From positions 1 through 64,000 of the forward strand of contig CAVVOB010000029.1 in assembly GCA_963749655.1 (NCBI GenBank): a stretch of 64,000 nt of DNA, read 5' to 3'. The notes below the pieces were generated by a model. The model saw nothing but the letters and a program-made list of their open reading frames with translations. It was not told the origin of the DNA and searched no databases. Origin of the DNA: Nitrospirota bacterium. GTDB taxonomy: Bacteria; Nitrospirota; UBA9217. Below, piece by piece: positions 2,078-55,028 of this stretch (positions within the stretch are counted from its first letter, which is position 1; the number at the start of each line of letters is the position of its first letter). The position numbers and the translations under genes were made by a program.

Positions 2078-2188
2078 CTAACGCCACGATATGGACCTGA
2101 TTCGGGGTAGCGATATCGTACCGGCATTCGTGGGTCGTTCCCGCCCTCCCGCGGGGATTGTCTGGGGAAGGGACCCGTCGGTGCCGTT

Positions 2189-3297
2189 TCACGGGTAATT
2201 CATGTGCTCGCGGTAGACGTCGAGCGCAGAAGCGTCGTCGTAGCGGACGTTGGTCGAGAGCGAGTGGTCGCAGCCGAAGACGTAGCGGGCGCCGCGCGTC
2301 TTCATGCCCTCGACGAGGCGCGCGACCTCGCGGCGGATGAGCGCGCGGTCGCCGGACTCGAGGATGCGCGCGTCGAGCCCGCCGATGAGGCGCAAGCTCG
2401 TCGCCGTACTTCTCGGCGATCCGCAGCGGGTCGTTCCCGGCCTTCACCTCCATCGGGTTCAGCCCGTCGAACCCCGCCGGCGACGATGAGGTCGGCAGCG
2501 CCCGGCTCCGTGAAGCCGCAGGTGTGCAGCACGACCGGCAGGTCGTAGGTGTGGAAGAACGCGACCAGCTCCCGGTAGTACGGGAAGATGAGCGGCCCGA
2601 GCGACCTCGGGGCGCGCGAAGAGGCGGTGTCTTGTAGCCGAGGTCCTCGTAGATCCAGATGCCGTCGGGCCGGCCGGCCTCCTCGAACGAGGAGCGCGTA
2701 AGCAGGTCTTGAAGAAGTCGGTGTAGACGCGGCCGTAGTCGTGGATCCAGTCCGGGTCGGCGAGGAGCGAGGTGTAGAGAGGCAGAGTCGCCCAGGCTCT
2801 GCCGCATGTTTTCCCAGATGAAGAGGTGCCCGTAGTGGGTCCAGCGCCCCTGGGCGCGGCGCTCGCGAGCGCCTCGGCGGCGCCCGGCACGTCCACGCGC
2901 GCGCGGTCGACCGCGAGCAGGTGCGGGCGGTAGTCGCGCTCCCAGATCTCGCGGCTCGTCATGCGGAAGTCGACGTGCTCGGGCGTGCCGGACTTGTTCT
3001 TCCACCACTTGAGCGCGGCGCCCGCGCCGTTGCGCGACACCTTCCACTCGTCGGTCTCCTCGACCATCTCCTCGACGCCGCGCATCGGGAGCGCGTCGAA
3101 CCACCCGCCGCAGCCGGCCATGTCGAGACCGAAATGCTCGATCGGCATCGACGGCATTGCCCTTCTCGTCCTTCGGGTAACCCTCGTCCTTGACCCGTTC
3201 TGCCAGCGTGTCGCCCAGGCGAATCGTACAGGCCGCAGCGCGGCCGCCCGCTGTGCCTGAACAGCGCCTGGACCACTGTGCGTGAATCGGCACCCAT
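2189..3297 (-). CDS. Uroporphyrinogen decarboxylase (URO-D)/cobalamin methyltransferase-like protein, frameshifted
   Basis: Fragments in several frames: DGIWIYEDLGYK, LHTCGF, GFDGLNPMEVKAGND, GGLDARIL, YVFGCDHS. Confidence 0.7.
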
Positions 3298-9146: not shown

Positions 9147-10582
9147 TCAGAAATCCAGCGGGCTCTTCACCTCTTTCCCGGGTTTGCGCGGGAGGCAGTG
9201 CAGATAGATCATCGTGGTCCTGATGTCCGCATGGCCCAGCAGCGTCTGGATCGTGCGGAGGTCGTAGCCCGCCTGAAGCAGGTGCGTGGCGTAACAATGG
9301 CGGAAGGTGTGCGACGTGACGCGCTTCGTGAGCTTCGCCTTTCGGACCGCTTCGCCGAAAACTTCCTGCATCCGCGAATCATGCACATGATAACGCCGCG
9401 ATTCTTTCGTTTGAGCGACGAAGGTCAGTGACTCCTGCGGTAAAAACCATTGCCAGATAAGCTCCTTCGCGGCCCGCGGATACTTCTTCTCAAGTTGATC
9501 ATCGAGAAAGACCCCGGAGAAACCCGCCGCGAGATCTTCGTCATGCAGTTTTTTCACGCGCTCCAACTGAGCATGCAGTTCCGGGAGGAGTGTCTTCGGC
9601 AGCGGCACGGTCCGTACTTTTTTGCCCTTTCCCCGGACCGTAAGGAGACCGGTATCGAAGTCGAAATCCTTGACTCGAAGCGTGCAGCCCTCCGAGATGC
9701 GCAGCCCGCACCCGTACTGGAGCTGGGCCACGAGTTTGAAGGGATGCCGGAGATGAGCCAGAACCGAATCTATTTCTTTCCGGCAAAGGACCGTGGGGAT
9801 ATAATTCGACGTCTTCGCGCGGGGGATGTCTTTATGAGTTCCGAAATCCTTGTTCAGCACATGCCGGTAGAGAAACAGCAAGGCATTGAACGCCTGATTC
9901 TGACGACTGGAGGAAACGTTGCAGTTGACCGCCAGATAAGTGAGATAAGTCCTTTACGTCCTGCGAGGACAGTTCGCCGGGGTCCTTGTCTTTCAGGTAA
10001 TTCTGGAACTTACGGCTCCAATCGGCATAATGCCTTGAGCGTTTTCCGGGAGTAATGCCGCACCTTTATTTCGGCGGCAAGTTTTTCGATGACCGTGTCC
10101 CATGCAGGAGCTTCGGTCTTTCTGAGACAGCGCCATTCGTCATACCGTCTGCCGCTTCTTTCCGGAGGCGCAAACTGAAAACCGCCCGGCGGCTCGCAAA
10201 CCATCAGAGGAGCTGTTTTCGCGGAAGCTGAATTTCGATCCGCATGGCCTTTGCCCTCAAACTGCCGCCCGGACAGCGTCGCCGCGGGAGCGCCCCCGGT
10301 GACCGACGAAGGATCGATTTTACTTCCCGGACGGGAAGCGAAAAACAGGGAAATCGCGTCCGCAGCCTGTTCAACCTGCCCCGCGGTCTGATTCTTGGAA
10401 CGCAGTTTATCGGCGAACAGCCTGACTTGATCCGATGGCGAGTCGGGGAGAGGATATTTTGCGCGAAAGTCGAGAAAATAGAGCAGCCACTTCCGGTAAT
10501 CGGCGAGAAACATGGGAGGGACATTCCGCTGTTTCAGCAGGTCGTTAAAGCCGGCGAGAATATTCTGAGGGATAGGTTTCAT
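9147..10582 (-). CDS. intI: Integron integrase (tyrosine recombinase) with N-terminal extension; frameshifts near 9960-10030
   Basis: YGCGLRISE, HTFRHCYATHLL, LLGH..IRTTMIY and the integron-specific insertion (LHDEDLAAG...LEKKYPRAAKELIWQWFLP...RRYHVHD); GGAGG RBS; adjacent attC array. Confidence 0.93.
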
Positions 10583-10613
10583 GGTAGGCAAACCTCCAGG
10601 TGCAGTTGAAGAC

Positions 10614-10642
10614 AGTATAGTGAACATTCGTTCACCTGTCAA
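10614..10642 (-). promoter_or_regulatory. Pint promoter TTGACA-N17-TATACT with a GTGAAC-ATTC-GTTCAC operator (LexA-type box) in the spacer
   Basis: -35 at 10637-10642, -10 at 10614-10619, palindrome at 10620-10635. Confidence 0.75.
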
Positions 10643-10726
10643 GCAAAAAGGCCTCCTCCTGGAGCGCACACCTTAAACATGTCCGGGATTTCGCCGGAGT
10701 TGATCCAATGAATCAACAAATATACC

Positions 10727-10807: not shown

Positions 10808-12182
10808 CATTGCTGTCCAAGATAATCTGATTTCCTGAAGCTCACCCCTACCAATCAAGGCTTTTAGACAGGTAATTCCATCATCTCGGATTCAGGTTCT
10901 TTGTTCTGCTGTCCAATTACCGATAGCTCATTACCAGTTGTTCTGCCGACGGTACAATCGGCGGTGTTTCAAACGGATTATCCAGCCATGTCCATAAATC
11001 TCGATACGTGAACAGGTTATACCGGAGCATGGCAACCAAATTCGACAACGACCAGCCGAGTGTGGAACGGAACTTCAAGTACTTCAACACCAGGATTGCG
11101 ATTAATGCTGTCCAAATCTGGGTCAGCAAAGCATTCCGGCTCGTTCCCACAAACGTCTTGATCTTCAGATTCTGCTTGATCGTCTTGAAAAATATCTCAA
11201 TCTGCCAACGGTCTTTATATATGCTCGCGATGGTCGTAGCGCCAAAAGTGAGATGATTTGTCCACAGAACAATCACCCGCTCATTGTCTGCGTCCCATAC
11301 TTCTACCCGCCGCAGGATATATGGGCATTTCCTGATTGAGTAATGGCCTGTCAGCTCAATGAGCTGGTCTTTAATGATGTTTCTGTTGTCGGGTACCGCT
11401 CTCTTTTCGATCACCTTGAAAGCGGCGTTATCCTTCTCTCTCGTTACAAAAAAAATTCCGGCCTCGGTCCATCGGGCAAACTGCTCATAGTCCACATAAC
11501 CCCGATCAATTGCCAGGATGGAGCCTTTGGGGAACGTGAGCGTATGCGCGATGTTCACTTCATGCACATTCCCCTCGGTCATACTGCAGAAGACCGGAAG
11601 ATAGCCGTCGTGGTCCAACAGCAGGTGAAGCTTGATAGCTCCTTTTTTCTGCCGATACTTTGCCCAGTCAAACAAAGTGATGCAAAGTTCTATCAGCGTG
11701 GCATCGAGGCTGAACAGCTTGTTCTTGAACCGAAACGGCTTCTTGCCGTGTGCCAGAACCCGGCACTTGGCCAGGAGCTGATAAAAGACCTTCTGGTACA
11801 GCTGCCACGGCCGATGCTCGTTGGCATAGGCCAGTGTGGAACGTTTGGGCGCTACATCTATCCCGAGGTGCTTAAGCTTGCCTAGGCATGTCGCCAATCC
11901 GCCGCAAATCTCCCGCAGCGAGTGTGCTTGTCCCAACTGACAGAACACCATTGCAACGAACTGACCCCAGCAACTGAACCCTTTTACGCCTCTTTCTGCC
12001 CGTGTTTCCCGCACCGCTCTCACAAAATCCTGCTGCGGAAATATATCTAGAATCTGTCCGAAAATGCTGTTAAACTTGTTCACGGGGATGTCCTCCTTCG
12101 GATATTTTGGTCTTCGACAAACCTACTTTATCCGATTGAGGCTTCCCCTGCAATTACTCAAATCCTATCTTGGACGGGTCTG
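10808..12182 (-). mobile_element. IS4-family insertion sequence (1375 bp)
   Basis: IRs CATTGCTGTCCAAGATA / TATCTTGGACGGGTCTG; 9-bp target duplication GCTTGCGCT at 10799-10807 and 12183-12191. Confidence 0.92.
10917..12083 (-). CDS. IS4-family transposase (DUF4372-type N-terminus + DDE)
   Basis: 388 aa; SLDATLI, AIDRGY, YKDRWQIEIFFKTIKQNL. Confidence 0.92.
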   Translation of the reverse strand: MNKFNSIFGQILDIFPQQDFVRAVRETRAERGVKGFSCWGQFVAMVFCQLGQAHSLREICGGLATCLGKLKHLGIDVAPKRSTLAYANEHRPWQLYQKVFYQLLAKCRVLAHGKKPFRFKNKLFSLDATLIELCITLFDWAKYRQKKGAIKLHLLLDHDGYLPVFCSMTEGNVHEVNIAHTLTFPKGSILAIDRGYVDYEQFARWTEAGIFFVTREKDNAAFKVIEKRAVPDNRNIIKDQLIELTGHYSIRKCPYILRRVEVWDADNERVIVLWTNHLTFGATTIASIYKDRWQIEIFFKTIKQNLKIKTFVGTSRNALLTQIWTALIAILVLKYLKFRSTLGWSLSNLVAMLRYNLFTYRDLWTWLDNPFETPPIVPSAEQLVMSYR

Positions 12183-21039: not shown

Positions 21040-21098
21040 CGACAACCTGCCGGTCCACAGCGACGCGCCATAGGCGGCGCGTGACCGGCGTGTTGAGC
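21040..21098 (+). other. attC 10, MITE inserted at its GTT
   Basis: CGACAAC...GCCGGTCCAC/GTGACCGGC...GTT|GAGC. Confidence 0.88.
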
Positions 21099-21311
21099 CT
21101 GTAGGAAAAGTCCTGAAAAGGCCTTTTTTGCACTTCCAAGACAGCGACGAATTTTTGCTGATGCTAATAGGAATGGCGATGGCGACGATTCTGAGCCCTA
21201 ATGACAGGCTCATTCTCACTCGGCCATCATCGAACGACATTGCGGCAGTTTAATCGCGATATGCGAAGACTGGCGCGTTGGGGTTCAAAAAGGGACTTAT
21301 TCTACAGACTC
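21095..21311 (+). mobile_element. 217-bp non-autonomous element (MITE) with IS1182-type ends
   Basis: IRs GAGCCTGTAGGAAAAGTCC / GGACTTATTCTACAGACTC resemble the ends of the two IS1182 copies; GTT at 21092-21094 and 21312-21314; no transposase. Confidence 0.88.
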
Positions 21312-21329
21312 GTTAGTCTGGAGTTGATA

Positions 21330-22282: not shown

Positions 22283-22342
22283 GACTAACGATAACGCTCG
22301 AGAGGGTCGCTAAAAACCGCGCCCCTCAGCGTCGCGTTGAAC
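22283..22342 (+). other. attC 11, IS1182 inserted at its GTT
   Basis: GACTAAC complements GTTAGTC at 21312; ends GTT|GAAC. Confidence 0.9.
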
Positions 22343-24127
22343 CTGTAGGAAAAGTCATTTTATGCTATAATGACGCCATTAAAATGCTGCACGGAAGCAT
22401 GAATACCCCTCACCCACGGGAGCGCGCATGGCGAAATACAAAGACTACGATTATTCCCAAGGCAAATTTATCCCGATCAACTTCGACAAACAAATCCTCC
22501 CCGGCACCTTCGAACACACCCTCCACTATCTCATCGACAACGACCTCGACCTATCCGCTTTTGATCTCCGGTACAGGAACGACGAAACCGGCGCCCCGGC
22601 CTACGATCCCCGGATCATGCTCAAGATCGTCCTGTATGCCTACTCCAAAGGGATCACCTCCAGCCGGAAGATCGCCGACTGTTGCAACGAGAATGTCGTG
22701 TTCATGGCCCTGTCCGCCGACACCCGGCCGCACTTCACCACGATCGCCGATTTCATCTCATCGAACGACCAGGAGACGGTGAAGCTCTTCCTTGAAGTAC
22801 TCTTTATCTGCGACCGGATGGGCCTGATCGGCAAAGAGATGTTCGCTATCGATGGCTGCAAGCTCCCTTCGAACGCTTCAAAGGAATGGAGCGGAACTAA
22901 AAAGGATCTCGACGTAAGAAAGAAAAGATGGAGAAGGCGATCAAGGCAATGATCGCTCAGCATAAGGAACGGGACAAAACCGAGACCGACCACGCGGTAA
23001 TCGAGAAGGAAGAGCAGTATATAGCCACCCTCAAGGCGAAGATCAAAAAGATAAAAGACTTCATGAACGATAACGACGACAAGCCCGGCAGCAAGGGGCC
23101 GAGGAAGAGCAACATAACCGACAACGAAAGCGCGAATATGATGACTTCGCACGGAGTAGTCCAGGGTTACAACGGTGTAGCCATGGTGGACAGCAAACAC
23201 CAGGTAGTTGTCCATGCCGATGCGACCGGAGACTCCGAGACTGCAATACTTAAACCCATGGTCGAAGGGACCCGGGGAAACTTCAAGACAATCGGAAAAG
23301 AAGAGGACATCTTCAAAAAGACCCAACTGACGACCGATGCCGGTTTTCATTCCGCAATGAACGTGCAGATGGTAATCGAAGAAGGCATCGACGCATACAT
23401 CGCGGATAACAAGTTCCGTCATCGCGATCCCCGATATGCTACGGCCGACAGGCATAAGGAGAGGTTCAATAAAGAGATCGCAAAGAAATTCGACCGGCCG
23501 ATCGTCTTCCAGCCGAGAGACTTCACGGTGAGCCCGGATAAAAGCTTCTGCACCTGCCCGGCCGGGAAACGGATGTACAAATGCGGCAACGCGAATCATC
23601 ATGGACTCCATGCGATCAAGTATCACGGAACAAAACGAGACTGTATCCCGTGCACGCAGCGCGCGCAGTGCCTGAAGAACCCCGAAGTGACCGAAACGCG
23701 CCAGTTCTCCCATTTCACAGGCAGGACCAACAAACAAGAAAAGACCTTCACGCAGAAGATGCGAGAGAAGATAGACTCGGTGGCCGGCAAGTTGATCTAC
23801 GGACGAAGGATGGCGACGGTCGAACCGGTATTTGCTGACATCCGATCGAGTCTCGGTCTCGACCGCTTCAGTCTCAGAGGGAAAAAGAAGGTAAGCACCC
23901 AGTGGCGGCTATACTGTGTGGTTCACAACCTGCTCAAAGTGCACCGATACGGGTTCGGGTTCGCGGAAAGTTGAGATAACGGGAAGCAGAAAGAGAAAGA
24001 AAATGCAGTAGCGAGATCGACCAGGACCGATTGAATCACGCAAAAGCTCAAATCAAGAACTCACCCTGATAAAAACTTGCTACCGGGGATCAATGATGCT
24101 TTTCAAATCGACTTTTTCTACAGACTC
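22339..24127 (+). mobile_element. IS1182-family insertion sequence, copy 1 (1789 bp)
   Basis: IRs GAACCTGTAGGAAAAGTC / GACTTTTTCTACAGACTC; GTT at 22336-22338 and 24128-24130. Confidence 0.92.
22428..23974 (+). CDS. IS1182-family transposase, frameshift near 22915
   Basis: GAPAYDPRIMLKIVLYAY (DUF772-type), AIDGCK, TDAGF, CPAGK, RRMATVEPVF. Confidence 0.9.
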
Positions 24128-24161
24128 GTTATACCAGCTCAAATATTAAGGTTTGGATATC

Positions 24162-24700: not shown

Positions 24701-24719
24701 CTGGCAAGATTTAAGGAAC

Positions 24720-25544
24720 GTGAAGAATATGATGACAAATTTTCTTATAGTCTTATTCTGTTTAGCCGCTGGTCTCTCGCTCGGCAATATCGCAGGTACA
24801 TCAATGTCGATGGCCCTTGGACTTGATTTACCTGCAGGACCATACATCGGAGCCGTTATGGGCGGTATCCTTGGCTTGCTGTTTTCGCCACTCTTTCTCC
24901 TGAAAAAAGTGCGCAACAACATCTTCGAGATACTTGCTTTATGTTTCGCTCTTGCAGTTCCAGTTGCCGTGATTTCTAGTCTTGCTCGGCAGCCGTGGTT
25001 CTCAATCGGACTGACTTTGGCTACTGTGATTTCCGTCTACATCTTTGCATTATGGAGGGGCGATGACACGGGCACCTCGTTGTCATCAAAAAAGAAGATT
25101 CTGTACGCTCCCTTAGCCGCTGTCGTCCTTGCATCTTTCGCCGCGTATTGGTCAGAGGACAAAAGGCTCCCTAACGACGTTCCCACATTAATAGAAATGA
25201 TGGGTGATAATGATATGGCAGTACACGTAGACGCCGCACGAAAGCTGATGAAACGAGGAAAAGAACCTTTTCTAACCGCATTACATCATAAAAACCCAAA
25301 TGTACGTGCGGTGGCAGCTCACTCTTTAGGTCTTCTCCACGACCCATCAGTTCAGGCTGCTTTAATTGAAAGCGCAACTGATCCTGATCAATATGTTCGT
25401 ATGTGGTCGGCGTTTTCGCTTGGGGTAATAGGTGATGAGAACGCGCTGCCCACTCTAACTGCTCTAACGAAAGATAAAGTGGAAGTTGTTCGAGTTGATG
25501 CACAAGAAGCGATAGCCAAACTCGAAAAACGATTGAAACACTAA
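24720..25544 (+). CDS. Cassette 13: membrane protein with C-terminal HEAT repeats
   Basis: Several TM helices, then NVRAVAAHSLG, YVRMWSAFSLG, VVRVDAQEAI. Confidence 0.8.
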   Translation: MKNMMTNFLIVLFCLAAGLSLGNIAGTSMSMALGLDLPAGPYIGAVMGGILGLLFSPLFLLKKVRNNIFEILALCFALAVPVAVISSLARQPWFSIGLTLATVISVYIFALWRGDDTGTSLSSKKKILYAPLAAVVLASFAAYWSEDKRLPNDVPTLIEMMGDNDMAVHVDAARKLMKRGKEPFLTALHHKNPNVRAVAAHSLGLLHDPSVQAALIESATDPDQYVRMWSAFSLGVIGDENALPTLTALTKDKVEVVRVDAQEAIAKLEKRLKH

Positions 25545-25596
25545 CTAATCGTTCGAGTCCCGCGCTTACTGCGCGGGGCTCAACTCGTCGTTATCG
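25539..25596 (+). other. attC 13
   Basis: CACTAAC...CCCGCGC/GCGCGGG...GTTATCG. Confidence 0.85.
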
Positions 25597-25598
25597 TC

Positions 25599-25754
25599 TC
25601 AATCTGTTGCCGGTCCGTATGGTGGCAAATTATTTTCTTTGAGGTGCTTTTCCCACGCAACCTGATCCCATGGCACATAGCCTGGATACGGCTCAATTTT
25701 AAATGCCTGATCCGTCAGGGGATCCGAAGGAAATAATTGTAATTGTTCACCCAT
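25599..25754 (-). CDS. Cassette 14: reverse-oriented 51-aa peptide
   Basis: Hand translation MGEQLQLFPSDPLTDQAFKIEPYPGYVPWDQVAWEKHLKENNLPPYGPATD; spans the cassette between its core sites. Confidence 0.55.
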   Translation of the reverse strand: MGEQLQLFPSDPLTDQAFKIEPYPGYVPWDQVAWEKHLKENNLPPYGPATD

Positions 25755-25756
25755 GA

Positions 25757-25813
25757 CGATAACCATAATTTCGACAACGACACGCTTCGCGGCGTGTCAA
25801 ATTGTCGTTAGGC
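25757..25813 (+). other. attC 14
   Basis: CGATAAC complements GTTATCG; GACACGC/GCGTGTC; GTTAGGC. Confidence 0.88.
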
Positions 25814-25867
25814 TGTAGATCAGGAAACATAATTGACCTAGACAATTCAAATGCAGAAGGGGGTATT

Positions 25868-26926
25868 ATGTTCAAGATCAGCGCGTTCCCGAAGAAGAAT
25901 CTGAAATGGTGGTTTCAGCAGGAAGCCACTATCGATTTTGATCCCGATTTCCAGCGAACTTCACGGGTCTGGAAGGATAAGGACAAAGCATTTCTGATTG
26001 ACTCTATCCTGAACGGTTTTGACATCCCCAAAATTTATGTTGCCGATTTCACAAAACACAATATCCCATCAATGAACCGTCACGGCAAGAGCTATGCTAT
26101 TATCGACGGCAAACAAAGATTAACAGCTATCTTTGCGTTCCTCCACGATCGTTTACCACTCCACAAGAAATTTCGCCTGGAGTCCCAACCAATGCTGGAT
26201 ATCGGCAACCTGCGCTTCAGCGACCTCAAGAAGCAACAACCGCAAATCGCCAGAATCATCGATAAATATGTCCTCGACGTCAAGGTTATCGAAACAGACG
26301 ACCGAAAAAAGATCAACGATGTCTTTCTTCGCCTGAATAAGGCCTCTAAAGCTTTAAACGGAGCGGAGGTTCGCAACGCTATGATTGGGCAAGCAGTTGA
26401 CGCGATACGCGACGTGGCGAAAGATAGTTTCTTCGTTCGTAGGATTCGCTTCTCTACGGATCGCAGCCAAGAACGCAATGCGACCGCGAAGATGCTGCTT
26501 CTTGAGTACGAAAGCGGTCCTACAGAGACAAAGAAAAAGAATTTAGACGCATTCGTCACAAGTATAGGCGAGAGTGGTAGTGGCCGGTTTAACCGCACCG
26601 TACGCCGGGTCAAGACCAATTTGAAAGTGCTCTCTAGCGTGTTCCGGAATCAGGACCCGTTATTAGGTGCTCAGGGGCATCTGCCCTTGTATTACATGTT
26701 CATATCGCGCCTTAGACCCGCGGACCGCCGGGCTGTTCGCGTCTTTCTTGAAACCCTTGAGCGGCAGAGGGTGCGTAATCGCAACAGGACTACTGCCGCC
26801 GGTGACCGCGCCTTGGACCAGTATGATCTTGCTAGCCGTAGTATCAACGATAAAATCAGTTTTGAGACACGCCTGCGGATTATCAGGGCTAAATATGTGT
26901 CTTGGAAGCGAAGCCATAGAATTTAG
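25868..26926 (+). CDS. Cassette 15: DUF262 (GmrSD/ParB-like) domain protein
   Basis: PDFQR..VW...LIDSILNGFDIP...IIDGKQRLTAI...VFLRLN. Confidence 0.85.
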   Translation: MFKISAFPKKNLKWWFQQEATIDFDPDFQRTSRVWKDKDKAFLIDSILNGFDIPKIYVADFTKHNIPSMNRHGKSYAIIDGKQRLTAIFAFLHDRLPLHKKFRLESQPMLDIGNLRFSDLKKQQPQIARIIDKYVLDVKVIETDDRKKINDVFLRLNKASKALNGAEVRNAMIGQAVDAIRDVAKDSFFVRRIRFSTDRSQERNATAKMLLLEYESGPTETKKKNLDAFVTSIGESGSGRFNRTVRRVKTNLKVLSSVFRNQDPLLGAQGHLPLYYMFISRLRPADRRAVRVFLETLERQRVRNRNRTTAAGDRALDQYDLASRSINDKISFETRLRIIRAKYVSWKRSHRI

Positions 26927-26986
26927 GTGTCACACATCAGCCTTGACCTCAGCGGTCATGTAGCAAGCCGTTACCTATCATAATGA

Positions 26987-28923: not shown

Positions 28924-29458
28924 GCGAAAAATTATGTCGATAAAACATCTATCACAAGTTGAAGTCGCAATAATAGGAGAATGCTTAAAGGCGGCCTCCT
29001 CTGGTCCTTTTTTACGTCAGGGACAATTCTTTGATGAAGAAGTCCTGGGCTTTAATCTTGACGAACTACTTGACGTGTCTTCCAAATGGCCGCAGGTTTT
29101 CCTAGATAACAAAATTAATAGTGTCGTTAACAATGTACTCGCCGCGTTTATGCCAGATGGCTATCCATTGTATAAACGAGAGGATTGGGACAAGTGGATA
29201 TCGGCTTCGCCTGCCGAAGTTGACGAGATTTTAGCAAAATGGCGACGTCGCGATTGTCCGTTGAATGAAAAAGAAGCCGTTGAACTTGCCTCAAAGTACG
29301 CATTCAATGACGAAATTAATAACGCTGAATTTAAAATTGAAAAGAAGCCTGTTGCCAATTTCAAAGTCAACATCAGTTATAACAAATCTTGGGGCTGGGT
29401 CTTTAGACTAGAACCAGCATCAGATTTTTTAAGGCCAGTAGTGATAGTTAATAAATAT

Positions 29459-30835
29459 GGGTCTTCCGGGTTTAGTGTGGGTCATTTATAGCATCTGGGA
29501 GAAAGGAAGTCAGCACCTTCAGCTGAAGATACTCTTTATCCTTTATGCCATAAGCCCGACGTTGAATTACCCGAATCTTGTTGTTTAATCCCTCCATGAA
29601 CCCGAGGGAGACCTTGTTGTCGGGATGACAGTAACTGATGATTCCATCCCAGTGGCGTTCGATCATTGCAGCAAACTTTTGAAACGGTTCCAAGCGGCTC
29701 CAGCGAAGCTGTTCTTTCCAGTTCTCAAAGAACTTCCGTGCCCAGGTCGGATTGTTGTATGACCACAGCTGGCCGAAAGATTCCTTGAGTAAATAAGCCT
29801 TGTGAAGGCGGCTATTGGCCTTGAGTAGGAGTTTCAAAGCCCGCTTGCCATTCATATCCAGGTTGTCCCGGTTTGAAAGCAGCGTATAGCGCTGGCCCTT
29901 GATGAACCGTCGTTCTTTGTCATTGACACGTTTGTATTCGCTCCGCCTAACCTCATCCAAGGCGAACGACAGGTGCCGGAGTACATGGAACTTGTCGAAG
30001 ACGAGCTGAGCGTCCGGTGCATGGTGTTTAGTAGCGTTTCTGAAAGGCTTCCACATATCCATGACCGCCAGCTTGATGCCCTTCGATATATCCGGTCCAA
30101 TTTCATTGAAGAAGAGGTCTAAATCCTCTTCCTTGCGGCCGTTGCCGCCAAGCCATATCGGGCGCTGCTGATCCAGATCGGCAACAACGATTGCATAGGT
30201 ATGGCCCTTACGGATGGATATTTCATCGATGCCGATCACGCGAAGGTCCTTGGACGGCGGGTGCTTCGCCAGCAAATCACGCATGTAGCTTTTCTCGATG
30301 CGCTGGACCTGGTCCCAGCTTAAGCGGTTCATCTCAGCTACTCGCGATATGGACATTTCACGACACTGACGCCCAATGGCCTGTTCGAACCGTCCGGTGA
30401 ATCTCTTGGATGATGCCAGCCAGGCAAGGGTCTCTCGCTTCACGGCTTGGCACCTCCGGCAGAATATGCGGCGATACTCGAACTCGAGAGGATCCGAATG
30501 CCGCCGGAGTCCAGATCTCTGACCCGATGGTTGACGCGATCGTAGAAGCCTCGTCGGCTACTGCCACAGGAACAGGTAGTTTTTTTTGCCGTCGTCGCAG
30601 GATGATAATACGACCACCGGGATCGTCCGGGTCATCCTTTAACCGTGACTGGGCTCGAAATCCCGGAAAGCTATAGAGCGAGCTAAGGGTGGTCTTCTTC
30701 ATAAGGCAAGACGATACCCTTTGCACCGAAACGTGTCAAGTTATCAAAGAGCAATAAATCGTTAAAAGCAGCTTCAAATGGGCCTTATATCCATATATAT
30801 GCTTCTTAGTGACCCACAGGAAAGTCAGAAGATCC
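29459..30835 (-). mobile_element. ISL3-family insertion sequence (1377 bp)
   Basis: IRs GGGTCTTCC...TGTGGGTCA / TGACCCACA...GAAGATCC; 8-bp target duplication ATAAATAT at 29451-29458 and 30836-30843. Confidence 0.92.
29472..30702 (-). CDS. ISL3-family transposase, split 5' end
   Basis: IGIDEISIRKGHTY, VMDMWKPF, FDKFHV, EGLNNKIRVIQRRAYG; A8 tract (T8 at 30580-30587) near a frame break. Confidence 0.9.
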
Positions 30836-30942
30836 ATAAATATAACGGCTTTCATTTTGCTTGTTCGGATAGTGCCGATAACCATGCGGCGAATTATGAA
30901 AAAACACTATCGAAGTGGGAACTGAGTTAAACGAACAACAAA

Positions 30943-31001
30943 AGATAACCTGCGCCTCGACAGCGACGCGCCAAAGGCGGCGCGTCAGCCGCGCGTTGAA
31001 C
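30943..31001 (+). other. attC 19, IS1182 inserted at its GTT
   Basis: AGATAAC complements GTTATCT at 28917; ends GTT|GAAC. Confidence 0.9.
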
Positions 31002-32791
31002 CTGTAGGAAAAGTCATTTCATGCTATAATGACGCCATCGAAACGCAGTACGGAAGCATCAAAACCCCTCACCCACGGGAGCGCGCATGGCGAAATACAA
31101 ACATTACGATTATTCCCAAGGCAAATTCATTCCGATCAACTTCGACAAACAGATCCTCCACGGCACCTTCGAACACACCCTCCATTATCTCATCGACAAC
31201 GACATCGACCTGTCCGCTTTTGACCTCCGGTACAAGAACGACGAAACCGGCGCTCCGGCCTACGATCCCCGGATTCTCTTAAAGATCGTCCTCTACGCCT
31301 ATTCCAAAGGAATCACCTCAAGCAGAAAGATCGCCGACTGCTGCAACGATAACGTCGTCTTCATGGCCCTTTCCGCCGACACCCGGCCCCACTTCACGAC
31401 AATCGCCGACTTCATCTCCTCCCATGACCAGGAAACGATGAACCTCTTCCTCGAAGTCCTCCTGATCTGCGACCAGATGGGCCTGATCGGCAAAGAGATG
31501 TTCGCCGTAGACGGCTGCAAACTCCCCTCGAACGCCTCGAAGGAGTGGAGCGGTACCAAGGAAGAACTCGAACATAAGAAAGAGAAGATGGAGAAGGCCA
31601 TCCGGGAGATGATCGCGCAGCACAAGGAGCGGGACAAAACCGAGACCGACCAGGCGGTCATCGAGAAAGAAGAACAGTACATTTCAACGCTCAAGGCGAA
31701 GATCAAGAAGATAAAGACCTGGCTTGCTGAAAACGACGACAAGCCCGGCAGCAAGGGCAAGCCCCGGAAGAGCAACATAACCGATAACGAAAGCGCCAAT
31801 ATGAAGACTTCGCACGGGGTTGTCCAGGGATACAACGGCGTAGCCATGGTGGACAGCAAACACCAGGTAGTGGTCCATGCAGAGGCGACCGGAGACTCCG
31901 AATCCGCAATACTGAAACCCATGGTCGAAGGAACCCGGGAGAACTTCGAGACAATCGGCAAAGAAGAGGACATCTTCAAAAAGACCAAACTGACGACCGA
32001 CGCCGGCTTCCACTCCGAAAAGAACGTGGAGATGGTAATCGAGGACGGCATCGACGCATACATCGCCGACAACAAGTTCCGACACCGCGATCCCCGGTTT
32101 GCCGAAGCGGACAGACACAAGGAGAGGTTCAACAAGGAAGTTGCCAAACGATTCGACCGAGCCATCATCTTTCAACCGCGCGACTTCACGGTAAGCCCGG
32201 ACAAAAGCTTCTGCATCTGCCCGGCCGGGAAACGGATGTACAAATGCGGCAATGCGATCCATAATGGACTACAGGCGATCAAGTACCACGGAACAAAACG
32301 AGATTGCATCCCTTGTCAGCTCAGGGCGAAGTGCATGAAGAACCCCGACGTGACCGAAACCCGTCAGTTCGCCCACTTTACCGGAAGGACCGACCAACAA
32401 GAACAAGACGTTCACGCAGAAGATGCGGGAGAAGATAGACTCGGTAGCCGGCAAGCTGATCTACGGACGAAGAATGGCGACGGTCGAACCGGTCTTTGCC
32501 AATGTCCGGAGCAGCCTCGGCCTCGATCACTTCAGCCTCAGAGGGAAAAAGAAGGTGAGCATTCAGTGGCGGCTCTACTGCGTCGTGCACAATCTATTGA
32601 AGGTGCATCGATACGGGTTTGGATTCGCGGGTAGTTGAGGTAAAGGGAAGCCGAAAGGGAAAGAAAATGCAGTAGCGAGATCGACCAGGACCGATTGAAT
32701 CACGCAAAAGCTCAAATCAAGAACTCACCCTGATAAAAACTTGCTACCGGGGATCAATGATGCTTTTCAAATCGACTTTTTCTACAGACTC
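30998..32791 (+). mobile_element. IS1182-family insertion sequence, copy 2 (1794 bp)
   Basis: Same IRs as copy 1; GTT at 30995-30997 and 32792-32794. Confidence 0.92.
31087..32638 (+). CDS. IS1182-family transposase, frameshift near 32397
   Basis: Close but non-identical homologue of 22428-23974. Confidence 0.9.
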
Positions 32792-32794
32792 GTT

Positions 32795-32826
32795 GGGGTT
32801 CAAAAAGGGACTTATTCTACAGACTC
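32795..32826 (+). mobile_element. Right-end remnant of the MITE (32 bp)
   Basis: Identical to 21280-21311 and followed by GTT at 32827. Confidence 0.88.
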
Positions 32827-32861
32827 GTTATTCATACCGACGATGGAGGCACTCTCTCCCA

Positions 32862-33851
32862 ATGAGAAAAGGAACCTTTTTAAATTTGTGCGCATGTCTC
32901 GTCATATTTACATTTCCACATGATGTTCATGCAGACGATTCCGTTTACAGTGGGGATGGCATTGACGTTTACCCTTTACAAAGCGCGAACATTCAAATGG
33001 TCTCCGAAACAATCACCATTTCAGACAAGGGCGGCAGAGAAAGATTCGGCGTTGATGTCGATATGATCTTCAAGAATCACGGGCCTGATACTACGGTACA
33101 GATGGGGTTCCCAATTTTGATGGATGAGGTAGACGGCGAACGAGTAGAATTTGATCCGCATTTTCGGACTTGGGTTAATGGAAAGGAAGTTCAAACCACT
33201 AGGAAACGCGGCATTCCACATCCAGTAAAGGATTATTATCATTTTTCTGATGCCGTTTATGCTTACGCCGTCTCTTTCAAGAGCGGAGAATCAATAAAAA
33301 TAAAACATCAATATGCTGTTGGTGGCACTTTTGATTCGATTGGCGGCTGGAACTTCACTTACATTTTACGAACGGGCGCCTTGTGGAAAGGTGTGATTGA
33401 AGATTTTTCTATGATTTATAAAACCAACGTCGTGAATGCCCCCAACATTATTGGCTCACTCCCGAAGGAACAGAAGGCATCCTTGGATGGCTCGGAGATA
33501 ACTCTTTTCTGGCACATAAATAACTTTAAACCGCAAAGTGATTTCAAATTGATAGGGGGCAGCTCAAGTTTCGCGTTAATGAAGCAAACCGTGGATGAAG
33601 ATTTGAGAGGTGTTAAAAAATTTACGTTGATTATGACTTCTGCAGAGCTGAGATACGCCAAGAATAAGGTCTTCGCATTTTATGGCTATCCTTTCAAAAA
33701 TGCTTTTGTTAAAAAGCAATTTTATTATCCGGGTTCGCAATACAAGGAAAACTCTTCCTATTCCGAGCAGAAGGTGTCGAAGGAACATTTGAGCTACATT
33801 GAGTTGTTGTCAAAGCTCGAAGAAGCTAGGTTGAAATCAGAGAAATTCTAA
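32862..33851 (+). CDS. Cassette 20: secreted DUF4424-like protein with YARHG-like C-terminus
   Basis: Signal peptide; IQMVSETITI, YILRTGALWKG; ELRYAKNKVFAFYGYPFK. Confidence 0.7.
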   Translation: MRKGTFLNLCACLVIFTFPHDVHADDSVYSGDGIDVYPLQSANIQMVSETITISDKGGRERFGVDVDMIFKNHGPDTTVQMGFPILMDEVDGERVEFDPHFRTWVNGKEVQTTRKRGIPHPVKDYYHFSDAVYAYAVSFKSGESIKIKHQYAVGGTFDSIGGWNFTYILRTGALWKGVIEDFSMIYKTNVVNAPNIIGSLPKEQKASLDGSEITLFWHINNFKPQSDFKLIGGSSSFALMKQTVDEDLRGVKKFTLIMTSAELRYAKNKVFAFYGYPFKNAFVKKQFYYPGSQYKENSSYSEQKVSKEHLSYIELLSKLEEARLKSEKF

Positions 33852-40001: not shown

Positions 40002-40038
40002 TTCTTAGATGCCAAGCACCGACCAAGGAGGAATGATT

Positions 40039-41389
40039 ATGGATGTCGTAGCATTAAGCAGGCTGCAGTTCGCGCTCACGAGCATGTTTCACTGGATCTT
40101 TGTGCCGCTCACCCTGGGGCTCTCCCTCATGACGGCGTACATGGAAACACGGTACGTCAAGACCGGCGACGAGATGTACCTCAGGATGACGAAATTCTGG
40201 GGCAAGCTGTTTCTGATCAACTTCGCCCTCGGCGTGGTGACGGGCATCACCATGGAGTTCCAGTTCGGCATGAACTGGGCTGAGTATTCCAAATATGTGG
40301 GGGACATTTTCGGGGCGCCCCTGGCCATCGAAGCGACGATGGCGTTCTTCCTCGAATCGGTCTTCATCGGCGTCTGGATCTTCGGCTGGAACAAGATCTC
40401 GAAGAAGGCCCATGCCACGTCCATCTGGCTCGTTTCCCTCGCAACCAATCTGTCCGCGCTCTGGATCCTGCTGGCGAACGGCTGGATGCAGCACCCCGTC
40501 GGCTACGTGCTCCGCAACAACCGCGCCGAGATGGTCGACTTCGGGGCGCTGCTCACCAACCCCTACGGCTGGCTCAAGTTCGGCCACACCCTCACCTCGG
40601 GGTACGTGGTTGCCGCCTTCTTTGTCATGGGCGTGTCCGCGTACCACCTTCTGAAAAAGAACCAGTCCGAATTCTTCCAGCGGTCGTTCAAGATCGCCGC
40701 GGTCTTCGGGCTGGCATCCACCCTCGCCGTGGCCGTGATCGGCGATTTCCATGCCGTCGAGGTCGCCAGAACACAGCCCACGAAATTCGCCGCCATGGAG
40801 TCGCTCTGGGACACGCAGAAGAATGTAGGATACAATCTTTTCATCATCCCCGACACCGATAAGGAATGCAACGTGCTCGAGGGCCCCTGCATGCCGAATC
40901 TGCTGAGCTACCTCGCCTTCCATACCGCCGACGCCGAGATCAAGGGCCTGAAGGCCTTTCCGCAAGGAAGATCGCCCGCCGGTACAGCCCACGTTCTGGA
41001 GCTTCCGGATCATGCTCACGCTCGGCTTTATCATGCTCTTTCTGACGATCATGGCGGTCATCTACGCAAAACGCGGGACCCTCGAAATGCATCCGCTATT
41101 CCTGACGATCATGCTCTTCTCCATCCCCCTGCCCTATATTGCCGGCCAGCTCGGCTGGATCGTGGCGGAGGTGGGCAGGCAGCCCTGGATCGTCTACGGG
41201 GTCCTGAAGACCACCCATGCCGTATCGCAGTCCATCAGCACGCTGCAGGTGTACGCCTCTCTGCTCGGATTCACCCTGCTCTACGGCGGGCTCGGCGCGG
41301 TCGATATCTATCTCCTGTCCAAGTTCGCGAAAAAGGGGCCTGATAACGACACCTCGGGACTGTTCAAACCGGCAAAGGAGGAAGCATAA
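40039..41389 (+). CDS. cydA: Cytochrome bd oxidase subunit I, frameshift near 40960
   Basis: LSRLQFA...FHWIFVPLTLG, QPTKFAAME, GWIVAEVGRQPW. Confidence 0.93.
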
Positions 41390-41390
41390 C

Positions 41391-42423
41391 ATGGAATTCC
41401 AAGTCACGTGGTTCGTACTCTGGGCGGTCCTGTGGGCCGTCTACTTCATGCTCGACGGCTTCGTGCTCGGCACGGGCATGCTGCACCACTATCTGGGCCG
41501 GAACGACCAGGACCGGAAGATCCTGATCAGGTCCGTAGGTCCGGTCTGGGACGGCAATGAGGTCTGGCTCCTGACCGCGGGCGGCGCCACCTTTGCGGCC
41601 TTTCCGACAACCTATGCGCTCATGTTCAGCTACCTGTACTCGGCCCTGCTCCTGCTCCTGTTCGCGCTCATCATCCGCGGGGTGTCCCTCGAGTTCCGGG
41701 GCAAGATCGGACAGCCCGGGCTGGAAAAAGGGCTGGGATATGGGCATCTTCATCGGAAGCGCCCTTCCGGCGCTTCTCCTGGGCGTCGCCTTCGGCAACA
41801 TCTTCAGCGGTCTTCCCATGGACGCGGCCGGATATCACGGCTCGCTCCTTTCGCTGCTGAATCCCTACGGCCTGCTGACCGGCGTTCTGTTCGTACTGCT
41901 GTTCCTGACCCACGGCAGCCTCTACGTCTGCGTCAAGACCGAGGGGCATCTGTGCGATACGATCCACGGCCCTGGCCGGCAAGCTCTGGTTCGCCGAGCT
42001 GGCCGTTGCCGTCCTGTTCCTCGTGGCCACGGCTTTTTCGACAAAGCTCTATGACAACTACATGAGCACTCCGCCGCTCCTGGTCGTGCCTTTTCTGGCG
42101 GTTGCGGCCCTGCTCGGGATCAAGATTTTCCTTGCTCAGGGAAATTCCCTGATGGCCTTTGCTGTCGTCGTGCCTGACCATCGTCATGGTCGTGTTCACC
42201 GGCGTGATCGGGCCTCTTCCCGAACCTGATCCCGTCGAGCATCGACGCGGCCTACAGCCTCACGATCTTCAATTCTTCTTCCAGCACCTACACCCTGAAG
42301 ATCATGACCGTCGTGGCGCTCGTCTTCGTTCCGATCGTGATCGGCTACAAGATCTGGGTCTATCGCCTGTTCCGCTCCACGGTGACCGGCAGCTCCGTCG
42401 CGGACAGCGAACAGATGTATTGA
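41391..42423 (+). CDS. cydB: Cytochrome bd oxidase subunit II, frameshifted
   Basis: GPVWDGNEVWL, FAAFP; follows cydA. Confidence 0.92.
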
Positions 42424-52133: not shown

Positions 52134-52194
52134 ATTTAATTCAGTGAGGAGTAAGGAGTGAGGTGGAAGGTGAAAAGGAATCAGGGAAGAGACC

Positions 52195-52240
<46 letters not shown>

Positions 52241-52242
52241 CT

Positions 52243-53164
52243 TCACGATACCTCAATCAACGTCACAAACACATCCTCGAGCGACGGCACGATCTTCTCT
52301 ATTCTTCTGACATTAATGCCCGCGCCCTCCAGGTGCCGGCGAATCAGGGGCTCGGCTGCTGCGGCGTTTTCCACTGTCGCATGGAGCACGCTCCCGAAAA
52401 TCGCTGATTCGATATTATTCCTGTTCAACAGGTCCATCGCATCGACGACGCGGTCCGCGTCGATTTCCAGCACGTCCCTGGTCATGTACTTCAATTTGAG
52501 CTCGTTCGGTGTGCCTTCGGCAATGATCCTGCCGCGGTAAATGAGCCCCAGCCGGTCACAGTAATCCGCCTCGTCCATATAGTGCGTCGTAACAAAGACC
52601 GTGGTCCCTGCCTGGGACATTTCATAGATCATGGTCCAGAAGTTGCGGCGCGAAACCGGGTCCACACCCGAAGTGGGCTCGTCGAGGAACAGGATCGGCG
52701 GTTCGTGCAGCACGGCGCAACCCAGGGCCAGCCGCTGTTTGAAGCCGCCGGGAAGCGTCCTCGTAACGGAGCCCCTTTTGTCTTCAAGGCCCGCCATGGA
52801 CAGGACCCATCTTTTCCGCTCGTCTTTTCTCGAATCGGGCACCGAGTAGATGCCGCTGTAGAAGTTGATGTTCTCGTCGACCGTCAGATCGTCATAGAGC
52901 GAAAACTTCTGCGACATGTAGCCGATGGTCTTCTTGATTTCCTCGGATTGCTTGATGATGTCATAACCGCCTACGGTCCCGCTTCCGCCTGAAGGCAAAA
53001 GCAGGCCGCAGAGCATCTTGATCGTTGTCGACTTTCCCGCTCCGTTCGGCCCGAGGAAACCGAAGATCTCGCCTTTCCTGACTTCGAGGTCGATCCGGTC
53101 CACGGCAATGAAATCACCGAACGTGCGGGTGAGACCCTTAACTGTGACTGCAGATCGCTGTTAT
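52243..53164 (-). CDS. ABC transporter ATP-binding protein; 5' end uncertain
   Basis: GPNGAGKST, LDEPTSG. Confidence 0.88.
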
Positions 53165-54147
53165 GATTTATGGTCATTTGTTCGCCTTAATTCCGCATTC
53201 CGCAATCCGCATTCCGCAATGCCTTCCTTCTTCTCCACCATCGATATAAACACGTCTTCAAGCGACGGCTGAATGTCCCGCAGCCCCTTGACTTCGATTC
53301 CCATTTTCTTGACTGCTTCGACAACCGACCCTGCAGCCTCCCGTTGCTCCAGGGCGATGTGGAGCCTGTCGCCGTAGATGCTTGCGCTCCTTGTGCCCGG
53401 TATCTGCCGCACGACAGGAAGGGCTGACCGGGCATCGCCGGACCAAAGCTCGATCATGGGTAGACCGAGCGATTGTTTGATCGCCGCGGGATTGTCTAGT
53501 TTGAGCACCTTTCCGTTGTGCATCAAGGCGATCCTGGTGCAGCGTTCGGCTTCGTCAAGATAGGCTGTCGAGACAAAGATGGTAATGCCTTCCTTTAAGA
53601 GATCATAGAGGATCTTCCAGAAGTCCCTGCGCGATACCGGGTCCACGCCGTTCGTCGGTTCGTCGAGAAAGAGCACTTCCGGAGTATGGATAAGCGAGCA
53701 GGCGAGGCCCAGCTTCTGCTTCATGCCGCCCGAGAGCTTGCCGGCAAGTCGGTCCTTGAACGGGGTCAGATTGCTGAACCCGAGGAGCCGTTCGATGCGG
53801 GGCGGCCGCTCCTTTTTCGGCACTTCATAGAGGTCTGCATAGAACAGGATATTTTCCATGACCGTCAGATCTTCGTACAGCCCGAAGCGCTGCGACATGT
53901 ATCCGATCTTTTCTTTTATCCTCTCGCCTGCAGTGCGGATGGAAAGACCGGCCACCCATGCATCACCCGAGGTGGGGTCCATGATCGCGGCAAGGAGACG
54001 CATGGTCGTGGTCTTTCCAGCGCCGTCAGGCCCCACGAGTCCGAACAGCTCGCCTTTCGGGATCTCGATGTTCAAGCAGTCAACGGCAGTAAGGCTGTTA
54101 AACGACTTCGTAAGATTGTCAGTCTTTATTGCAGCGAAATTGTTCAC
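53161..54147 (-). CDS. ABC transporter ATP-binding protein
   Basis: GPDGAGKTT, LSGGMKQ, LDEPT. Confidence 0.92.
   Translation of the reverse strand: MNNFAAIKTDNLTKSFNSLTAVDCLNIEIPKGELFGLVGPDGAGKTTTMRLLAAIMDPTSGDAWVAGLSIRTAGERIKEKIGYMSQRFGLYEDLTVMENILFYADLYEVPKKERPPRIERLLGFSNLTPFKDRLAGKLSGGMKQKLGLACSLIHTPEVLFLDEPTNGVDPVSRRDFWKILYDLLKEGITIFVSTAYLDEAERCTRIALMHNGKVLKLDNPAAIKQSLGLPMIELWSGDARSALPVVRQIPGTRSASIYGDRLHIALEQREAAGSVVEAVKKMGIEVKGLRDIQPSLEDVFISMVEKKEGIAECGLRNAELRRTNDHKS
53190..53220. repeat. Heptamer tandem repeat (AWTCCGC)n
   Basis: ATTCCGC ATTCCGC AATCCGC ATTCCGC AAT; related tract near 60341-60364. Confidence 0.8.
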
Positions 54148-54196
54148 TCCTGACTCCTTGCTCCTGACTCCTTGCTCCTGACTCCTGCCTTCTGAC
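54146..54196. repeat. Degenerate heptamer tandem repeat (ACTCCTG/GCTCCTG/ACTCCTT)
   Basis: About 7 units filling the intergenic gap. Confidence 0.85.
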
Positions 54197-54197
54197 C

Positions 54198-55028
54198 CTA
54201 CGGTTTCATCAAGATCCTTACATCCGCCGGCATGCTTGGTTTGAGCTCGTCATTCACGTTCTTCACGCTCACCTTTACGCCGAAGACGAGCTTCACCCGC
54301 TCTTCCTTTGTTTGGACATTTTTAGGGGTGAATTCTGCCTCCGATGCAATATAGGTAACCGTGCCGTCATAAACCTTGCCGGGATAGGTATCGGTGGAGA
54401 CGAAAACCTTCTGTCCCAGTTTTATGAGCCCCAGCTTGTCTTCCTTTACGTAGACCTTGATCCAGGGATTTTCGAGATCGCCTATCGTGAATACGGGAGT
54501 TCCTACCGCTACCGTCTCGCCTGCTTCCACGTTCTTTTTGAGCACTACGCCCGATACCGGTGCGTACAGCACTGCGTCCCTCATCCGTACTTCGCTGGTC
54601 CTGAGCGCGGCCGTTGATTGCCGGATCTGTGCCTGCGCCACATCGTAGACTGTTTTTGCCGCGTCCATCTGCTGGGCTGAGATCGCTTCTTGCTTAAAAA
54701 GCATCTCCGCCCGCGTAAAATCATTCTTTGCCTGTTCGAGCTGCGCATTCGAATGTTCAAGGACGGCTTTGCTTTGTGCAACCTGGGTCGCATACTCCGC
54801 GTTGTCGAGCTGGGCGATCTTATCGCCCGCCTTCACGGTTCGGCCTTCATCGGTGAGCAGCGTTGTAACCCTGCCGGGAATCTTGAACGCAACGTCGACT
54901 TCCGTTACCTCCACGTTGCCCGAAAGTGTCATATTTCCCTGGTCGCGGTTATTCCCGAATCGATATACCAGCGCCGTTGCTACGACGGCCGCCAGCAGAA
55001 TTCCCGCTATGATCAATCTTTTCTTCAT
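54198..55028 (-). CDS. HlyD-family periplasmic adaptor
   Basis: N-terminal anchor; IASEAEFTPKNVQT. Confidence 0.9.
   Translation of the reverse strand: MKKRLIIAGILLAAVVATALVYRFGNNRDQGNMTLSGNVEVTEVDVAFKIPGRVTTLLTDEGRTVKAGDKIAQLDNAEYATQVAQSKAVLEHSNAQLEQAKNDFTRAEMLFKQEAISAQQMDAAKTVYDVAQAQIRQSTAALRTSEVRMRDAVLYAPVSGVVLKKNVEAGETVAVGTPVFTIGDLENPWIKVYVKEDKLGLIKLGQKVFVSTDTYPGKVYDGTVTYIASEAEFTPKNVQTKEERVKLVFGVKVSVKNVNDELKPSMPADVRILMKP

Follow-up and report, generated by a model that had tools for sequence, protein, structure and literature searches.

Why does an IS lodged in an attC site of an integron cassette array end in a second right end, and why does the piece that carries this extra end begin exactly at a GTT in the interior of a different element? 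The question is raised by a 64,000-nucleotide stretch of Nitrospirota DNA (contig CAVVOB010000029.1, positions 1 to 64,000; henceforth termed the window), in which the second of two related IS copies is followed by a GTT, by the last 32 bp of a MITE and by another GTT. Either the integron integrase (IntI) or the transposase had been proposed to have cut at the internal GTT of the MITE, and both routes had been taken to imply that this site is active. Here, we set the scar beside related elements in other genomes and weigh the processes that could have produced it.

The cassette array and the anatomy of the scar

The window contains an integrase gene and 21 detected attCs, all on the plus strand, which extend from 13662 to 35990 and score 32.6-76.9 bits. 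The covariance model used for their detection, R1, was built from 16 attCs of the window's own array, with the attC of IS copy 2 outside the training set. An integrase and an attC array of one orientation, which together define an integron cassette array, are thus both present. The RtcB homologues with a named source are all from Nitrospirota, at 80-84% identity, and point to a Nitrospirota bacterium as the most likely host. Three attCs bear insertions, namely a MITE, IS copy 1 and IS copy 2, each starting directly after the attC GTT and followed by a further GTT. The attCs bearing the MITE (21040-21094) and IS copy 1 (22284-22338) reach 62.0 and 54.9 bits with R1, and the occupied attCs still score 54.9-65.7 bits because the first bases of the inserted element (GAAC or GAGC) replace RRRY. 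The features on which the argument depends are the following.

9147-9881, minus strand: integron integrase gene, intI (TIGR02249, 283 bits against a cutoff of 265, model positions 71-313 of 315)
21095-21311, plus strand: intact putative MITE, 217 bp, in another attC, with GTT at 21092-21094 and 21312-21314 and an internal GTT at 21277-21279
22339-24127, plus strand: IS copy 1, 1789 bp, flanked by GTT and without a stump, lacking one base after 22911 in comparison with copy 2
30943-30997, plus strand: attC bearing IS copy 2 and the stump, ending in GCCGCGC GTT (R1 match 30943-31001, 65.7 bits, E 5.6e-20)
30995-30997, plus strand: GTT at the left end of IS copy 2, which is the attC R' triplet and the left copy of a presumed 3-bp target duplication
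30998-32791, plus strand: IS copy 2, an IS1182-family element of 1794 bp (GAACCTGTAGGAAAAGTC ... GACTTTTTCTACAGACTC), with its left inverted repeat (IRL) at 30998-31015 and its right inverted repeat (IRR) at 32774-32791
32792-32794, plus strand: junction GTT between IS right end and stump, the counterpart of the MITE internal GTT at 21277-21279 (repeat family D14)
32795-32826, plus strand: MITE stump, 32 bp including the right inverted repeat, identical to 21280-21311; the fourth right end
32827-32833, plus strand: outer flanking GTT plus ATTC, by direct reading the original attC R' (GTTATTC)
32862-33851, plus strand: cassette ORF downstream of the stump, 329 aa, matching DUF4424 and YARHG weakly and not related to the cassette that follows the intact MITE

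Two stretches between detected attCs, 24701-26986 and 28924-30942, hold two ORFs each with no attC match between the ORFs, and are either two-gene cassettes or cassettes with degenerate attCs. Degenerate sites may also account for the numbering of the attC that bears IS copy 2: the site itself stands, yet it is the 17th of 21 on the plus strand by R1 and not attC 19 as originally counted. The interval from intI to the first cassettes, the expected place of attI and of the cassette promoter, contains an IS4-family transposase gene (10917-12083, minus strand; NF033592, 259 bits). An IS1634-family transposase gene is found at the window start (164-2023, plus strand), and a CTCCTGACT-like 7-nt unit forms short tandem arrays (52181-52252 and 54133-54204; repeat family D6), with a 14-nt spacing between the listed repeat copies, at ABC-transporter ATPase gene ends on the minus strand. 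As assembled, intI is spread over at least three frames (9147-10672), with its N-terminal pieces upstream in two other frames; model positions 1-308 and 319-418 of cydA likewise fall in different frames, and cydB occupies at least two (40009-42065). These split conserved genes, together with the frame changes in the IS copies, point either to an indel-prone assembly or to several decaying genes.

Judged by their sequence, IS copies 1 and 2 both belong to the IS1182 family of DDE transposases. The transposase contains the Pfam domains DUF772 (N-terminal) and DDE_Tnp_1_6 (C-terminal), and the frame of copy 2 (31087-32638) has a +1 frame change, an extra base, near 32404 as assembled. Since each gene is split by a frame change, the NF033551 scores of 210 bits for the copy 2 ORF and 160 bits for the second ORF of copy 1 fall under the cutoff of 270. 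Compared with an intact 526-aa homologue (locus L078), which bears the name "IS1182 family transposase", the copy 2 protein is 69% identical up to residue 437, and its conserved C-terminal 77 aa lie in another frame. Homologues are abundant (7967 of the 8000 scored candidates at E <= 1e-20), and the names among the best 120 of the 8000 are exclusively "transposase" or "IS1182 family transposase". The splitting of cydA, cydB and intI makes the assembly look indel-prone, so that the frame changes in the IS copies say little about activity. Over their full length the two copies are 86.8% identical (1560 of 1797 columns; 74-93% per 100 bp), with 100% identity in the last 136 bp (32659-32794 and 23995-24130). 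This segment is not conserved in the IS of locus L029, described below, so that a recent exchange between the right ends, by gene conversion or recombination, is likelier than constraint.

The terminal inverted repeats of the IS are 18 bp long and match at 15 of 18 positions, and all three window elements have GTT on both sides. The 217-bp element has only these ends in common with the IS, and the longest run common to an IS end and a MITE end is 15 bp. With the same ends, the same flanks, a non-coding interior and multiple copies, this element and the stump are classed by sequence as a MITE, a putative non-autonomous derivative of the IS; its first base is 21095, three positions before the 21098 given earlier. 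Six distinct relatives of the MITE, at 73-78% identity and on Nitrospirota-type contigs, occur among the matches listed.

Read directly, the scar consists of the right end of IS copy 2 (...CTACAGACTC), GTT, 32 bp, GTT and the attC R' tail ATTC, the order that the original prediction had described, and 32795-32829 equals MITE positions 21280-21314 at 35 of 35 bp. The stump starts with the first base past the internal GTT of the MITE, so the breakpoint indeed falls exactly on that triplet. The part of the MITE that is absent from the scar comprises 182 bp and one GTT (185 bp in total), and no MITE left part was found near IS copy 2 when the window was read for left ends. Across the whole window, the 15-nt right-end core occurs in four copies with 0 mismatches and left ends number three, which leaves one right end unpaired; it lies 35 bp beyond the IS's own right end. 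A 20-mer put forward in the original prediction is present twice in the window, against 0.00 occurrences expected from 100 shuffles. The outer R' (GTTATTC) is complementary to R'' (GATAAC) of the same attC, with which it presumably pairs. No promoter-like or terminator-like sites were found in 32500-33000.

An extra right end could also be created by assembly if repeats were mis-joined, and this region is repeat-rich, with frame changes in cydA, cydB and intI that suggest indel-prone assembly. Against this, the IS-GTT-GGGG junction is a single occurrence in the window, which a collapse of existing repeats could not have created, the stump is copied exactly over all 35 positions, and the flanks are biologically canonical on either side. 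Given a unique junction with two exact parts, we consider an artefact hardly credible. As a structure, the scar is a common by-product of transposon traffic, a footprint of the kind left by a nested, tandem or three-ended IS.

Target choice, tandems and remnants in other genomes

A genome scan with the 21-nt right end, including its GTT, as query yielded at least 114 stretches, 80 of them with 3-kb flanks. The GTT being part of the scan pattern, its constancy at the right ends of these at least 114 loci is imposed by the search; the left-repeat pattern used for pairing right ends did not include GTT. Among the matches listed, hosts are mostly Nitrospirota/Thermodesulfovibrionia and Desulfobacterota MAGs, with some Proteobacteria and other phyla, and 48 elements could be paired: 14 IS copies of 1763-1843 bp, 31 MITEs of 99-870 bp and three of 1389, 1496 and 2710 bp, the last of which is probably a mispairing. 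Again among the matches listed, GTT stands directly before the left repeat in all 48 paired elements and 45 of the 48 left ends start with three purines; at unique right junctions without a further element, a purine follows the right GTT in 104 of 113, and the commonest right flanks (ATGT, AGGC, ATGC and GGGC) resemble the R' box. Many left flanks are recognisable as attCs by inspection, and the attC at L029 is of the window's type.

The sites also differ from random GTTs in predicted structure. For AAC:GTT hairpins of 40-75 nt, 56 real sites have a median of -3.4 kcal/mol, compared with 0.0 kcal/mol for 500 random GTTs (Mann-Whitney p 6.5e-11), and in a wider hairpin window the medians are -10.0 and -3.5 kcal/mol (p 7.7e-10). 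An attC test based on unconstrained folds recognised 21 of 57 sites and was dropped as too crude; constrained energies with controls were used instead. The family usually inserts at a GTT that forms the 3' foot of a DNA hairpin, which as a rule is the R' triplet of an attC, and its members are flanked by GTT left and right. The flanking GTT would be a 3-bp target duplication rather than part of the element.

The cultured isolate Desulfospira joergensenii DSM 10085 harbors at least seven loci (L011, L022, L035, L042, L054, L074 and L095), including five copies with a paired left end and an IS of 1833 bp, over three scaffolds. Some of its sites have TGTT flanks and a weak AAC...GTT hairpin upstream, or none (L022); targeting is therefore not strictly limited to attC. 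At L015 (309-1355), a 1047-bp element with family ends encodes a 150-aa ORF and no transposase, and may be MITE-like with cargo. More distant relatives, found by protein and not by pattern in a plasmid collection, have 42-45% amino acid identity. Three of them, in complete genomes of isolates, have CTGTAG-type ends: L115 in Pseudoalteromonas piscicida has GTT on both sides and a small hairpin in front, L116 in Pseudoalteromonas sp. NC201 has GTT on the right, and L117 in Catenovulum adriaticum is a mirror-image arrangement with AAC on the right. The Catenovulum copy, which has the opposite orientation, has a BrnT toxin gene and a maturase fragment of a group II intron as neighbors. In L118, from Desulfolutivibrio, no recognisable ends were found.

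Several loci carry elements side by side. L029, from a Nitrospirota MAG (1150-3241), reads attC-GTT-IS-GTT-complete 217-bp MITE-GTT; its IS shares 86.8% identity with copy 2 over 1632 bp, and its MITE 73% with that of the window. At L002 (814-1254) two MITEs in tandem share one GTT, and at L108 (97-318) a right end abuts a MITE left end with a single shared GTT. These tandems indicate that the GTT beside a resident element stays a target. L029 also adds a starting arrangement, a tandem of IS, GTT and complete MITE, to the two that the original prediction had considered. Among the matches listed, right ends separated by less than 100 bp occur at no other locus, and no second copy of the IS with the stump was found. 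Right ends accompanied by only the C-terminal part of the transposase are present, among the matches listed, at L030, L031 and L047, and right ends with no left end or transposase within 3 kb at L005, L009, L017, L024, L026, L027, L034, L035, L066 and L073; left-truncated remnants, or longer cargo-carrying elements, seem common. No hairpin-GTT was found at the remnant breakpoints in L030, L031 and L047, which indicates a process other than that of the scar.

The internal GTT and the routes to the scar

The breakpoint GTT is preceded by GGCGC, like the 3' end of the array's attCs, and GCGCGTT is common to the attC of IS copy 2 (30991-30997) and the internal site (21273-21279). In agreement with the earlier placement of this GTT at the 3' foot of a hairpin, it closes a 47-nt AAC...GTT hairpin with a predicted energy of -9.9 kcal/mol, matched by only 0.6% of 500 random GTTs and surpassing about 80% of the real insertion sites. 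A fold of the 60 nt up to and including the internal GTT has -12.0 kcal/mol, a value that 2% of controls attain, and the site has C at -1 and G at +1, as real insertion sites do. A weight matrix of the real sites, which ranks the internal site 97th of 1744 window GTTs, was not used as support, as C at -1 and A/G at +1 account for nearly all of its information. Within the MITE family the internal GTT is a non-conserved feature: eight members have GTT (3), GTC (3), ATT (1) or ACC (1) at this position. The single-sequence, AAC-closed and alignment consensus folds of the internal hairpin all differ, and a conserved MITE structure was dropped from consideration, given that the consensus hairpin of the eight relatives is a different one and shows weak covariation, with double changes in 7 of 46 pairs and a covariation term of -0.64.

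Every constructible route to the scar needs three events. The reading that we favor, at roughly even odds of being right, is that the transposase linked the right end of the IS to the MITE's internal site, and that the left 185 bp of the MITE were later deleted or had never reached this attC. It is preferred because the junction has the canonical form of an insertion in the usual orientation, at an internal site with the structural hallmark of the family's targets. The sequence IS right end - GTT - stump has the exact form of a normal insertion junction, and the IS is oriented with the hairpin-GTT on its left-end side and its right end facing the remainder of the MITE, as the family rule has it in the window (3/3) and at L029. 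The event at the core of this reading would be the joining of the IS right end by the transposase to the CGTT at the hairpin foot, and the left 185 bp would have been lost, or would never have arrived, by one of three sub-routes. In the first, the IS would nest in a MITE resident in the attC, and recombination or slippage between the directly repeated junctions, each consisting of GCGCGTT plus the left inverted repeat and alike at 24 of 25 bp, would remove the left part. In the second, the transposase would delete adjacent DNA in a tandem attC-IS-MITE of the L029 kind, starting at the right end of the IS and stopping at the internal GTT. In the third, the IS would nest in a MITE elsewhere, and IS and stump would then transpose as one three-ended unit, with the left end of the IS and the right end of the MITE as its termini, as IS1272L seems to do. 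The left junction bears the IS-type GAA, which all three sub-routes allow, and the sequence does not separate them. Repeats of 25 bp give rise to deletions orders of magnitude more often than repeats of 4-7 bp; routes that start with a nested insertion are thus favored, provided that the internal site is a competent target. A single hit suffices if IS and stump arrived as one unit, so the claim that the attC was hit at least twice is not established.

Two further candidates were rejected. Segmental duplication of the MITE with its cassette does not agree with the unrelated downstream cassette proteins (E 0.43) or with the lack of any long repeat except the IS. Stem-loop replacement of the IS1272 type does not agree with the intact attC, and the lost MITE segment is not a palindrome.

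Because the shared GCGCGTT (7 bp, or 24 of 25 bp in the nested state) would allow slippage or recombination to set the same breakpoint, the internal GTT need not have been acted on by any recombinase. Such enzyme-free routes had been left out of the original prediction, and its conclusion that the internal site must be active does not follow. In one version, a MITE in the attC would be shortened by replication slippage between the two copies of GCGCGTT, a direct repeat of 7 bp whose copies lie 185 bp apart at the attC end and the internal site; this would leave attC-GTT-stump, and the IS would then insert at the attC GTT, as happened at an attC already bearing a MITE in L029. In the other, a tandem IS-MITE, an arrangement with parallels in L029 as well as in the L002 and L108 tandems, would lose the left part of the MITE by slippage on the 4-bp CGTT. 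The left-truncated remnants that keep a right end (3 + 10 loci, among the matches listed) and the presence of the internal GTT in only 3 of 8 family members agree with slippage. On the other side, the scar junction is a perfect IRR-GTT insertion junction, which in the second version just one among the numerous 4-bp repeat pairs would mimic; slippage between 7-bp copies 185 bp apart is generally rare compared with the 25-bp route; the breakpoints of the L030, L031 and L047 remnants are not at a hairpin-GTT; and the stable predicted hairpin at the internal GTT, in the top 0.6% of random GTTs, would be left as a coincidence. We therefore hold slippage to be unlikely in either version.

IntI crosses over at the G-TT triplet, and the breakpoint of the scar is such a triplet. 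With the integrase gene present (TIGR02249, 283 bits), IntI could have recombined the attC with the internal hairpin of the MITE as a pseudo-attC and excised a 185-nt circle, after which the IS entered the attC GTT. An AAC 47 nt upstream can pair with the breakpoint GTT (-9.9 kcal/mol) at a spacing that lies within the 40-140 nt of attCs, and L029 again exemplifies insertion of an IS beside a resident element. However, the internal region (21214-21283) scores 3.5 bits with R1 (E 0.65 in 233 nt), compared with 32.6-76.9 bits for the 21 attCs, and its alignment to the model is limited to the 3' 13 nt (TGGCGCGTTGGGG). When the MITE is folded as a whole, the AAC pairs in the minimum-energy structure with the next GTT (21283-21285) and not with the breakpoint GTT, and the AAC-closed fold has a 6-nt one-sided bulge where the usual R-box/spacer geometry would be expected. 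Moreover, intI is distributed over at least three frames as assembled, although the assembly seems indel-prone, and an attC-GTT-stump arrangement without an IS is absent from the at least 114 loci searched, a search of low power. Of the two routes originally proposed, the one through IntI is thus the weaker and in our view quite improbable, and joining by the transposase at the internal GTT is the one we retain.

The original prediction had suggested that these two routes be separated by searching for attC plus stump without an IS, or for an IS inside an intact MITE. The at least 114 loci (387,421 bases) contain 0 nested, stump-after-IS or junction cases; with only six distinct MITE relatives among them, this search is without discriminating power.

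Relation to known systems and significance

The structural read-out of the family is apparently akin to that of IS1272 in staphylococci. IS1272 and IS1272L have the same transposase family as the window IS (DUF772 and DDE_Tnp_1_6, NF033551). In one report, IS1272, a member of the IS1182 family, is described as targeting stem-loop structures, IS1272L as a three-ended form with a tandemly duplicated 25-bp end that was found as a new insertion, and TnSha1 as containing three IS1272 repeats; Siguier et al., as cited there, note that some IS1182-family members target palindromes (PMC5678879). The stem-loop or inverted-repeat target of IS1272 has no fixed sequence, as in the window family, and IS1272L has its third terminal repeat in tandem, as in the scar. 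By the same account, IS1272 replaces its target stem-loop without a target duplication, whereas the window family keeps the attC hairpin and has GTT at both ends; the extra end of IS1272L is a copy of its own left side, whereas that of the scar is the right end of a different, non-autonomous element.

Two other groups of mobile elements are directed to attC. The original papers on the IS1111-attC group are reportedly those of Tetu and Holmes in 2008 and of Post and Hall in 2009. This group, which includes ISPa21, ISKpn4, ISPst6 and others of the IS110/IS1111 family, targets one end of attC according to a further report (PMC11187229). Its members have a DEDD transposase guided by a seekRNA and subterminal repeats, and move via circles. 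The window IS, in contrast, has a DDE transposase of the IS1182 type, terminal 18-bp repeats and many MITEs, and seems to read the hairpin foot and GTT. Membership of the IS1111-attC group was accordingly rejected, attC targeting being the only feature in common. Group IIC-attC introns, according to a third report (PMC3001079), home to attC in one orientation and keep the cassette structure. They are retroelements composed of a ribozyme and a reverse transcriptase, whereas positions 12000-37000 of the window have no match to Rfam families.

A solo end next to an intact element is what nested insertion plus deletion, or an IS adjacent deletion, usually leaves behind. The scar differs from IS and MITE remnants in general in that both of its breakpoints lie on the 3-bp target of the family, at a hairpin inside the family's own MITE and within an attC. 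We found no description of an IS1182-type DDE family with many MITEs that targets attC in the literature searched, and such a family is seemingly undescribed.

The scar alone carries little weight; its main value lies in the attC-targeting transposon family behind it. As a tentative reading, which we regard as possible rather than probable, a widespread IS1182-family clade and its MITEs may insert in a structure-guided manner and in one orientation at the G-TT triplet of the 3' foot of attC hairpins. The purine-rich left end would rebuild the R' box, so that the elements could travel onward in cassettes mobilised by IntI. The scar would then be a natural experiment in which the transposase takes any CGTT at a hairpin foot as its target, including one within its own MITE; target recognition would accordingly be structural and independent of IntI. 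If true, this would be a third mode of attC homing, mechanistically unlike those of IS1111-attC elements and group IIC-attC introns, in a family that is abundant in Nitrospirota and Desulfobacterota integrons among the matches listed. It would also make structure-guided DDE transposition tractable for study, and the MITE hairpin could serve as a test target that is not an attC. Such a mode of homing would bear on the decay and rearrangement of cassette arrays and perhaps on the spread of transposons.
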